Of a stretch of 64,000 bases of DNA, positions 29,407 through 40,011 are shown in pieces. Position 1 is the first letter of the stretch; each line of letters begins with the position of its first letter. Below the pieces are notes generated by a model that had not been told where the DNA came from, searched no databases, and was given only the letters and a program-made list of their open reading frames with translations. Source of the DNA: Eledone cirrhosa (taxonomy: Eukaryota); NCBI GenBank assembly GCA_964016885.1, contig OZ024763.1, positions 1,860,001 to 1,924,000 on the forward strand. The letters run 5' to 3'. A program made the translations under genes and the position numbers.

Positions 29407-29463
29407 TAAAGTTTCAGAAGATCCCGTTAAGGGTGAAAGCAGCGATTCTTTGCTTAAACTTTA
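29407..29463 (+). ncRNA. Type I hammerhead variant with A at position 4 (family H)
   Basis: taaagttt CAGAAGA t-ccc-gttaa-ggg-t GAAA gca-gcgattctt-tgc TT aaacttta: stem I up to 8 bp; copies at 38803 (+) and 39900-39950 (-). Confidence 0.6.
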
Positions 29464-29567
29464 ATCTGTTATTTTTATAAATATTTGCTCTAGGGTTCTT
29501 ATATATCTGATATTTATCCTTATCGAGCCCTCTTTGGATTTTAGTCTTCAAATTTATTATTATTACT
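29407..29567 (+). mobile_element. Family H Penelope-like remnant in (TA)n
   Basis: Tail tttatccttatcga.ccctctttggattttagtcttcaaatttattattattac shared with 39957-40011. Confidence 0.7.
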
Positions 29568-29578
29568 ATATATATATA

Positions 29579-32500
29579 TCATCATCATCATCATCATCAG
29601 CGTTTAACGTCCGTGTTCCACGCTTGCATGGGTTTGGACGGGGGTAGTCCCACTTGAGGCAAGAGTGATTGTCTTGCTCGCATAGGACTGTCTGGCAGGT
29701 TTTCTACAGTTGGATGCCCTTCCTAACACCAACCACATTTACAGTGTGGGTCTGGGAGGTTTTTACCGTGTTGCCTACACGGCCACATTACAGCGTGGAC
29801 TGTGTGTTTTTTTGTCGTGACACCTACACGATCTCATTTGTTTCGGCCTCGATGGCGCGGCACCAACATAACTTTACATAGAACGGGGTGGTGTGGATCG
29901 GGTGGGGGTGGTGGGACGGGGTGTATTTGTTAGAGATGCCTACTGACTGGAGTAGGTTTTACTATATATTTAGGTAAGGCGGGTCTTCTCTGTTACTGAG
30001 TACCGCCAAAGGTCTCGGTCCAGTGACATTGTCTTGGAGAGGTGTAAGTGTGTGATGTCGGAGTTTATCAGCTCGTCCCAGGTTTTTCTAGGTCTGCCTA
30101 TTCCGTGACTACCGTCTATCTTTATTGCCCTGCACTTTGTTATACAGCTATCGACTTTCATGCGCATCACGTGTCCATACCAACGTAGCCTTCTCTCGAG
30201 TAAACAACATCTGATCCCTCTTATCTCTAATTTATTCCTTAGTTCGTTTATGCTTTGCCGTTCACGTATATTACTGTTACACATCCAGCGGAGCATGCAA
30301 GCTTCGTTCCTCTCTAGTCTGCGTATATCCTCTGCACACAATGCCCAGGTCTCACTGCCATGCAGCATTGCTGTTCGTATGCAGGCATCGTACAACCTGC
30401 CTTTCATTTTTAGTGAGAACCCTTTAGCAGCTAATAGTGGTATAAGCTCTCTGAACTTTTTCCAACCAGTTCTGACTCTAGCTACAGTACTTTCAGAGCA
30501 CCCTCCCCCACTGCTGATTTTATCGCCCAGGTAACGGAAGCTGTCCACTATTTCTATAGAACCCTCTGCGCAATTGAAAGAGCTAGTAGTTTGTGGGCAC
30601 TTGCTGCTACTTATTGCACCAGAGCACCGGCCACATGTAAAATCTATGTTCTTAGTTAGCCTACCTGTGATCCCACTACATCTTTTATGCACCCATACTT
30701 TGCATTTAGGACATAAAATGGAGTTTCTACCTACGCCTTTCCTACACACCGAGCACGACCATTTCCCAGAAGGGACCGCCGCCTTGTTTTCTTTCCTACA
30801 AACTAGTACTTTGGTCTTAGCCAGGTTAATTTTAAGTCCTTTTGACTCTAGGCCGTGCTTCCATGTTTGGAATTTCTTCTCTAGCTCGGCCATTGATTCC
30901 GCTATGAGTGTCAGGTCGTCTGCGTATAGGAGTTCCCATGGGCAGCCTGTCTTGAACTCCTCTGTTATGGCCTGAAGGGCAATAATAAATAGTAGTGGAC
31001 TGAGAACAGAGCCCTGATGGACGCCGACTTTTACGCTAAACTCTTCACTATATTCGTTGTTAATTCTAACCTTGCTGACTGTTTCTTTATACATGGCTTG
31101 TATAGCCCTCACAAGCCATTCGTCAACGCCTAGTTTTCTAAGAGCCCACCAGATAATGGAGCGGGGGACTCTGTCGAAGGCTTTCTCCAAGTCGACAAAA
31201 GCTAAGTAGAGGGGTTTACCTTTAGCTAGGTACTTCTCTTGTAGTTGTCGTACTATGAAAAGAGCGTCTGTGGTACTTTTGCCTGACACAAACCCGAACT
31301 GCATTTCATCTAGGTCAATTCTCTCTCTGATTAGCTGCGCTATTACTCTTTCCGTGACCTTCATGACCTGGTCGATTAATTTAATGCCTCTATAGTTACT
31401 CCTATCTAGGGCGTCTCCTTTACCCTTATAACAGTTAACGATGATGCTGCTATGCCAGTCCTTCGGAACAACCCCGTTTTGTACGACTTGGTTAACTATG
31501 CGGGTGACCATGGTGTGTCCCACCGTGCCAGATGCCTTCAGCATCTCAGCAACTATTTCCGAAGGCCCAGCCGCCTTACCAGTCTTCATATCCTTGATTG
31601 CCTTACTTATTATACTCCCCTCGACTAACACTGCTGGTCCCTCTATTGGGTCGATATGGGGGAGACTGCCTTTCTCCCAATTATTCTCCTCATTTAGAAG
31701 CCTTTCATAGTGACACTTCCAAGCTACCTTCTTATCAGCGTCGGTGATGGCAAGTGTGCCATCGTCGTTTAGTACACACTTCTCCCCGACAATATCACGG
31801 TTTTCCTTGACGCATTGCCTAGCAATCCTGAACACCTCACGTTTTTGGTCATCGCGTTGTAGAACATGCTTGAACTTTCTTTCCTCAGCTTCCCTTCTTG
31901 CTAAGTACACTTGTCTCCTAGCTTCCCTCCTGGCCACTTGATAGTCCTCTCTACTTCCCCCATCCCGCCATACTTTCCAAGCCTGCTTTTTGGCCTTAAT
32001 TGACCCCTCCACCTTACTGTTCCACCACCATGTTACTCTCCTCCTGCCTACAGGCCTGCTCCAGCCACAGACCTCGTCTGTCGCCAACAGCAGGTTTGCT
32101 TTCAGAAATTCCCACTCTCCCTCTATATTGTCCGACTCTAAATGTTCTTCCTTACTGTCGAAAGCATCAAGTAATATGCTTTGAAATTTATTCCTGGCTG
32201 TGGGGTCCTTTAACTTCCATATTTTCCTCCTGAGGATAGTCCTCTTCTGTTGTCGAGTACGTCTCGTCCTGACTATGAGGTCGCTAATTATCAGTCTATG
32301 TTGGGAGGTGCATTCTTCATGGGGGAGGGATTTAGTGTTAACAACAGACACTCTGTCACGTCTTCTGGTAAGGATATAATCTACCTGGCTTGTGTGTTCC
32401 CCGGATCTATAGGTGATCAGGTGATTGTCACGTTTTTTGAAGTTAGTGTTACAGATAGTTAGGTTATTTGCATCACAGAATTCCAGGATTCTGGAGCCTT

Positions 32501-39067: not shown

Positions 39068-39256
39068 TCATCTATATTAAAACTTTTATACTCTGCTATG
39101 TATTGAGTACCTTACTTACTGTGGTTACCTCCTATTCAACCCGGAATAACGTATATATATATATATATATATATATATATATATATATATATATATAACA
39201 TATTGTCACAGTGCCATATACATATATATAAATATATATATATATATATATATATA

Positions 39257-39337
39257 CAGGGTGTCCCCCAAAAGTGTATACATATATTTATTAGAAAATG
39301 CTGTTGAAGTGTGTATGCACTTTTGGGGGACACCCTG
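39257..39337. mobile_element. Tc1/mariner-type MITE (partial copy at ~39467-39530)
   Basis: cagggtgtcccccaaaagtg / cacttttgggggacaccctg TIRs. Confidence 0.8.
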
Positions 39338-39881
39338 TGTATATATATATATATAATGTGTGTGTGTGTGTATATTCATTTTATTAAGGCTAAATATTGA
39401 GTCTTGTAACTCTGGAATTTCGCCTATCACAGTATTCTTTTCTCTCAGACAACAAACACATATGGATAGGGTCCCCTCCAAAAAAATGTATACACACTTC
39501 AACAGCATTCTAATCAACGTGTGTATCTATTTTTATATGTATGTATATTTAGTATATATTAAAATTTCATAGACTTAACATCTATATGTGACTTTAGGTT
39601 TCAAGGTCCAGTTATGGCCACCACCACTGTAAGGGATCCATTCTAATAAGACTGGCTTTCTCCTCAAGTGCAAGGACAAGATTAAAAAATATATACATAT
39701 ACTAACTACTACTAAATGCAAAGAATTTTATATATATATATATATATATATATAGTGTAAGGAGTAAATCTTGTTTTTAAATGTGTTGCCTTCTCCTCCA
39801 TATATCTTTGATTGTATATATATTTATATATAATATATGTACTAAATATACATACATATATATATATATATATATATATAT

Positions 39882-40011
39882 ATTAAAATAACAGATTAAA
39901 GTTTAAGCAAAGAATCGCTGCTTTCACCCTTAACGGGCTCTTCTGAAACTCATTTATTTATCCTTATCGATCCCTCTTTGGATTTTAGTCTTCAAATTTA
40001 TTATTATTACT
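39882..40011 (+). mobile_element. Family H element: inverted hammerhead arm (39900-39950, -) joined to a + strand tail
   Basis: Minus strand reads agttt CAGAAGA gccc-gttaa-gggt GAAA gca..tgc TT aaact. Confidence 0.75.

Follow-up and report, generated by a model that had tools for sequence, protein, structure and literature searches.

A hammerhead fold with A at position 4 in a high-copy, probably Penelope-like repeat of Eledone cirrhosa

When the readable copies of a repeat all carry the same departure from the hammerhead core, was the change inherited from the source element, and would the RNA still cut? The question is raised by family H, a repeat with three hammerhead-bearing copies (H1, H2 and H3) in a 64,000-nucleotide stretch of Eledone cirrhosa (GenBank assembly GCA_964016885.1, contig OZ024763.1, positions 1,860,001 to 1,924,000 of the forward strand). 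This stretch, the window, is eukaryotic DNA rich in microsatellites and in open reading frames (ORFs) of long interspersed nuclear element (LINE) type. In 3/3 window copies position 4 of the core is A (A4) rather than U. The reading slightly favoured here (probability about 0.55) is that the H copies are 5′-truncated ends of a single repeat present in very many copies and likely to be a Penelope-like element (PLE). Its hammerhead likely had A4 already in the source, and little or no cutting is predicted for it.

The CAGAAGA cores of family H lie at 29415-29421 (+), 38807-38813 (+) and 39945-39939 (-). Stem II (CCC/GGG), GAAA, a 5-bp stem III and the CUU triplet are common to all three copies, and the core letters other than position 4 match C3 U4 G5 A6 N G8 A9 / G12 A13 A14 A15.1-U16.1. 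The layout is type I, with three helices in register, open at stem I, and an unpaired H17 (H1 and H3; stem I of H2 has 3 bp). Position 10.1/11.1 is a U.U mismatch in H1 and H2 and G.U in H3. A first-pass annotation had described three copies with CAGAAGA, ccc/ggg, GAAA and CUU, and these were confirmed by pattern search, blastn and shuffles. They were the sole matches to a 47-letter pattern in the window (3 at ≤3 mismatches; 0 expected, 100 shuffles), and blastn of H1 against the 64-kb window returned no fourth hammerhead-bearing copy. A descriptor allowing one core mismatch found 0 matches in 20,000 dinucleotide shuffles of the 161-bp element; across the window it found only the three H copies and five motifs of a second repeat, family G. 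The position previously given as 39900 proved to be the 3′ end of copy 3, the core of which is at 39945. The earlier stem I lengths hold for H2 (3 bp) and for H1 (8 bp, three of which, 29407-29409, come from the AT flank outside the element); the 5 bp given for H3 becomes 6 bp when one G.U is counted.

The features of family H, in window coordinates, are as follows.

29410..29568 (+): H1, 5′-truncated repeat end, hammerhead plus ~110-nt tail to the "long" 3′ end (blastn, alignment)
29410..29460 (+): H1 type I hammerhead (descriptor, fold prediction)
29410-14/29456-60 (+): H1 stem I, 5 bp within the element
29415-21 (+): H1 core C3-A9, with A4 at 29416
29422/29434 (+): H1 U.U pair
29423-25/29431-33 (+): H1 stem II
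29435-38 (+): H1 GAAA
29438-42/29450-54 (+): H1 stem III
29455 (+): H1 predicted cleavage site, after U17
29438..29454 (+): H1 quasi-palindromic stem/loop III (duplex prediction)
38803..38876 (+): H2, running from the hammerhead as far as the "short" 3′ end, with A4 at 38808 and U17 at 38847; a decayed copy, left with 3 bp of stem I by its private G at 38851
39876..39950 (-): H3 sense arm, which like H2 extends from the hammerhead as far as the "short" 3′ end, with A4 at 39944, G10.1 at 39938 and U17 at 39905
39955..40012 (+): H3 inverted arm, comprising the final 58 nt of tail (equivalent to 29511-29568, 98% identical), head-to-head with the sense arm
29382..29408 (no strand): (AT)n target flank of H1; similar flanks at 38753-38796, 39815-39883 and 40011-40110

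The inheritance of A4 was assessed from the differences among copies. Each copy has private differences (H1 at 29476, H2 at 38851, H3 at 39938, and others), and A4 is nonetheless common to all three. Contigs from four of 24 listed sequencing runs were also aligned to H (run X1, 12,499; X17, 4; X9, 2; X23, 0 reads). The T of H1 at 29476 is private, since 98.5% of X1 depth has A there. In X9 record 13, which covers 29410-29484, the only difference has to be the one at 29476, and this copy therefore has A4; the loose end of an X17 contig also contains CAGAAGA. A4 is found in 5/5 readable copies (three in the window, one each in X9 and X17), which, if the copies are independent, places the 95% lower bound on its share at 0.55, or at 0.37 from the 3/3 window copies. 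Two contigs with unplaced differences (X17 record 9, X1 record 1) and X17 record 10 were left out of this count. Because the copies differ elsewhere yet share A4, the sequence comparison supports inheritance from the source element, not decay copy by copy. Independent decay was rejected, as the same change would have to have arisen three times in copies that are 1-4% apart. The idea that CAGAAGA arose when a CAGAA-CTGAAGA form lost 5 nt was likewise rejected, stem I being in exact register on C3.

No row of the read-variant table falls left of 29442, and each row is 31 letters or more from a piece end in some run. The table also misses the CpG at 29426-27, though the CpGs at 29443-44 and 29524-25 show 3-7%. 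The table is therefore blind at 29416, and its missing A>T row is no evidence. The earlier claim of a family trait rather than decay thus survives in so far as A4 was inherited from the source (private differences, shared A4, two further contigs), and does not extend to A as the majority letter across the family. The description as a rare natural core variant fits the sequence; it need not carry over to function, since inheritance does not imply activity. The CUU triplet is not unusual, as 2/56 published PLE motifs have it (PMC4209133).

In H1 the stem II word is GATCCC and the tail word GAGCCC (29422/29527); in H3 it is the other way round (39938/39971). Where X1 gives a view, neither H3 letter is listed at 1%, and the pattern may reflect chance or an exchange between these similar words. 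Pattern scans for further H copies gave 0 matches in viral contigs (two scans). Three matching loci in metagenome contigs were rejected, being GC-rich and without family flanks, and the scan of GTDB genomes gave two loci, in Acidobacteriota assemblies. A 19-letter word covering stem II and GAAAGCA occurs in three bacterial-type contigs (L001 144-162, L002 2864-2882, L003 3001-3019), and L001 and L003 have CTGA-like words farther upstream of it. These stretches may belong to another structured RNA, group II intron-like.

Retroelement anatomy and a truncated distal stem I are additions to the first-pass annotation. The 12,499 X1 contigs fall on 29408-29568 (161 bp), which marks H as a very high-copy repeat. 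H2 and the H3 sense arm end at a common short 3′ end, H1 and the H3 inverted arm at a common long one, and both 3′ ends of H3 point outward into (AT)n. Among the X1 loose ends, 111 contigs lie behind 29484 and 25 behind 29565. Opposite-strand joints of seven kinds leave from 29410-29432 in 10 X1 contigs, five of these at 29410; contig joints can be assembly effects, and the same head-to-head form is seen in H3 within the window. H1, H2 and H3 have three different upstream neighbours, and the copies start 7-8 nt before the CAG junction. (AT)n-type flanks end 3/3 H copies, which is weak evidence alone because AT repeats are very common in the window.

PLE insertions are marked by 5′ truncation, an inverted 5′-truncated partner, an optional tail and a (TA)n bias (PMC8557442), and PLEs cleave and extend both strands at AT-rich DNA and have two internal reverse transcription start sites (PMC11167929). 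Copies that are 5′-truncated, with an inverted partner and an optional 3′ tail, are present here as H3 in the window and as joints and loose ends in X1. On this analogy, the H repeat likely represents PLE ends. The 5′ truncation points gather at the stem I 5′ strand in H and G (29410-29411, 38803 and 39950; 3/3 H copies; 5/10 joint contigs), and this cluster may be a site where reverse transcription stalls or folds back.

The truncation also bears on stem I. Positions 29461-29469 form the predicted 3′ strand of a distal stem I of 9 bp (one G.U) across a 7-nt bulge. Its 5′ partner lies in family DNA upstream of 29410 and is absent from all three window copies, which begin at 29410-29411 or the equivalent and hence lack the distal strand. 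The partner segment is common to the loose ends of one X9 contig and a weak consensus of 139 X1 contigs (agreement 0.51). Pairing at 9/9 positions arose by chance in 1727 of 200,000 random AT-rich 30-mers, of which 376 had no more than one G.U. For the family, the predicted stem I comprises 5 + 9 bp with a bulge.

The prediction of weak or no cutting draws on published work. All single mutants of the CUGA turn are low in activity and none is rescued but the C3/G8 swap; by pairwise mutagenesis, this low activity holds even in a tertiary-stabilised hammerhead (PMC9901934). The natural U4C change considerably reduces activity in vitro (PMC3088659). Ribozyme-dead PLE RNA inserts normally in vitro, where unprocessed RNA is the main template (PMC11167929). 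Because CUGA single mutants are low and PLEs insert in vitro without cleavage, a weakened ribozyme that is carried along appears likeliest. Only uncleaved RNA can give a copy that includes the entire hammerhead, and amplification would thus not be barred by a weakened core. The six X1 loose-end classes listed (156 further loose ends lie beyond them) include none at the cleavage site 29456.

A mechanism consistent with this can be proposed. The element endonuclease would nick both strands of an (AT)n tract, and reverse transcriptase would start downstream of the hammerhead, at either of two internal sites, so that short or long ends result. Uncleaved RNA would be copied through the ribozyme, usually with an early stop, often at the stem I 5′ strand. 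Two complementary DNAs primed from opposite strands would yield the inverted form seen in H3. As copying would not depend on cleavage, a master copy could spread despite its weakened core, taking the fold with it.

Several observations weigh against a weakened hammerhead in a PLE with A4 at its source. The 11 other core letters, stems I-III and the 9-bp distal stem I look intact, where a long-dead ribozyme is expected to erode. U17 and 29454-29458 are without variant at ≥1% in X1, so the CUU site is family-wide there. Most animal PLE motifs have a minimal stem III (PMC4209133), whereas that of H has the stability needed for a monomer. In the literature consulted, neither a U4A rate nor any per-mutant value was found. 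The X9 (2) and X17 (4) contigs may be trace DNA and so give weak independent support. Finally, 0/93 window frames match a PLE reverse transcriptase or GIY-YIG (93 of 104 filtered frames scanned, including the long LINE ORF as control), the sole strong protein matches among the scanned frames being LINE-type; with no PLE protein found, PLE membership is likely, not certain.

The intact remainder of the fold leads to the strongest rival, a working natural A4 hammerhead. A lineage of thousands of copies would have fixed a purine at position 4, and the full-length, stem-I-extended ribozyme would cleave after CUU, alone, as a dimer or with protein, the loss of U4 being offset by docking of the extended, bulged stem I on loop II, by a loop III dimer or by an element protein. 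The improbability of the 9-bp distal stem I by chance agrees with this, and so does the quasi-palindromic stem/loop III, in which 14/17 positions pair with a second copy (duplex -12.9 kcal/mol), making a dimer possible. Tertiary contacts have been argued to offset core changes (Perreault et al., PMC3088659), natural U4C still allows viroid infection (PMC3088659), and the Anolis PLE hammerhead cleaves only with protein (PMC11167929). Against this, the CUGA single mutants are low even when tertiary-stabilised, and U4 is present in 56/56 published PLE motifs, a count that is biased because the search descriptor fixed the core (PMC4209133). A slipped stem III register of H1 is also predicted to compete, beating the hammerhead register by 1.3 kcal/mol (-10.7 vs -9.4), with a pair probability of ~0.44 for the hammerhead stem III. 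Loop III has an excess of variants (29442, 29448), but their number is too small to argue for selection, and 29443-44 is a CpG. Other predictions concern the single copies: the folding energies are ordinary (z of -0.9, 0.2 and 0.0), and stem I of H2 is predicted not to form. No H copy matches the Rfam hammerhead models, at gathering score or at E up to 10, which is a weak test because canonical-core family G likewise falls below the gathering score. An active A4 ribozyme is considered doubtful on balance.

Less probable again is that A4 marks a subfamily, or locally related copies of one defective master, in a family that overall keeps U4. The read table has no view of 29410-29440, where U4 copies would have to be seen, and H2 and H3 are only 1.1 kb apart. 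X17 record 10 has CTGATC before 29420; this could be flanking DNA, or else a relative that keeps U4 and has gained one letter. On the other side stand the A4 of all five readable copies and the position of H1, 9.4 kb from H2 and H3 and with a different end; U4 copies in the window would show by blastn, and none did.

It is improbable that H is something other than a PLE, namely a non-autonomous hammerhead element (a non-LTR (long terminal repeat) retrozyme monomer or a short interspersed element-like repeat) or a fold-back DNA element. The copies are 70-160 bp, too short to contain an ORF, and none was seen; a long bulged stem I resembles canonical type I retrozyme motifs (PMC4209133, PMC7229834), and dispersed retrozyme monomers exist (bioRxiv 2026.07.22.740005). 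Yet the window holds no tandem H unit, insertion in the manner of a PLE agrees with the inverted joints, the ragged 5′ ends and the presence of two fixed 3′ ends, and retrozymes have themselves been proposed as PLE derivatives (bioRxiv 2026.07.22.740005). Retention of A4 as a 3′ splice site overlapping the ribozyme core (TTTCAG|A at 29412-29418, with pyrimidine-rich family DNA upstream) is the weakest proposal and very improbable: the D. virilis Penelope intron ends at the helix I 5′ end (PMC4209133) and the copies often begin at 29410-29411, but spliced copies would share an upstream exon, whereas H1-H3 have three different neighbours and start 7-8 nt before the CAG junction.

The weakened PLE hammerhead favoured here has a comparison at hand in family G, which occupies several places in the window.

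38958-39152, 12930-13104, 40458-40628, 46049-46263, 49072-49128: family G, second hammerhead repeat, CTGATGA core, GUA site
40190-40223, 49570-49639: family G fragments

Family G resembles H in the U.U followed by a 3-bp stem II, the palindromic loop III, short and long 3′ ends, inverted arms and (AT)n flanks, and differs in its canonical U4 and GUA triplet. Most G copies form head-to-head inverted pairs in which one 3′ end is short and the other long, both lying in (AT)n, and the layout shared with H recurs at five or more places; in one arm, at 46135, G replaces A6. Homology between H and G was rejected, as 376/2000 shuffles score as high. At 12801-12824 (+), CTGATGA, a 4-bp hairpin and GAAA are found, a combination that failed the three-stem descriptor; it may be due to chance or to a third family whose motif has decayed.

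Long LINE ORFs are present at 29970-33116 (-) and 50237-52474 (-). The former (1048 codons; endonuclease, reverse transcriptase, internal PHD finger) has a (CAT)n-type tail that adjoins H1. This RTE-type LINE was rejected as part of H1, because its own tail ends at ~29580 and H2 and H3 are without a LINE. A short inverted-repeat family resembling miniature inverted-repeat transposable elements stands beside AT repeats at 39255-39340, 21159-21238, 21999-22080 and 39482-39534. A perfect 68-bp palindrome at 40284-40351 adjoins an (AT)n tract and is perhaps another inverted insertion.

Hammerheads at PLE ends are well known; the new point is A4 in a high-copy family. No report of a natural U4A hammerhead family was found in literature searches, with most subscription papers outside their coverage. 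If A4 RNA cleaves, a supposedly fixed letter of search patterns can be a natural purine, and CUGANGA descriptors may miss whole animal families. If it does not, H would be a natural case of a PLE multiplying with a weakened ribozyme, which bears on the need for PLE hammerheads. In either case the canonical-core family G alongside is a ready comparison for H.

Among known systems, the type I hammerheads of PLE pseudo-LTRs (Cervera and De la Pena 2014, PMC4209133) share with H the topology, the dispersed single copies from truncated elements, the opposite-strand pairs, the palindromic stem/loop III and U17 sites, CUU among them. The 56 motifs listed there, all U4 under the core-fixing descriptor and CUU in two, differ from H in position 4 and in stem II, which in H is 3 bp with U.U and in those motifs has an extra 5′ letter and G10.1-C11.1. 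H further differs in its 5-bp stem III, its predicted bulged and extended stem I and the lack of a linked PLE ORF. Poseidon, a PLE from Anolis carolinensis (Frangieh et al. 2024, PMC11167929), resembles H in its AT-rich targets, priming on both strands and two 3′ ends downstream of the hammerhead; copying from uncleaved RNA is a feature of Poseidon and is proposed for H. The two 3′ ends lie ~85 nt apart in H vs 30-40 bp in Poseidon, and the Poseidon core is canonical and cleaves with protein, whereas that of H has A4. Natural core variants include U4C, U3-A8, A6C, U15.1-A16.1 and U10.1-U11.1 (Perreault et al. 2011, PMC3088659). H is like these in having a single change in an otherwise intact core, and U10.1-U11.1, tolerated there, is also the stem II base of axolotl HHR_Amex2 (PMC7229834). 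At position 4 itself, U4C exchanges one pyrimidine for another, whereas the high-copy animal repeat H carries a purine.

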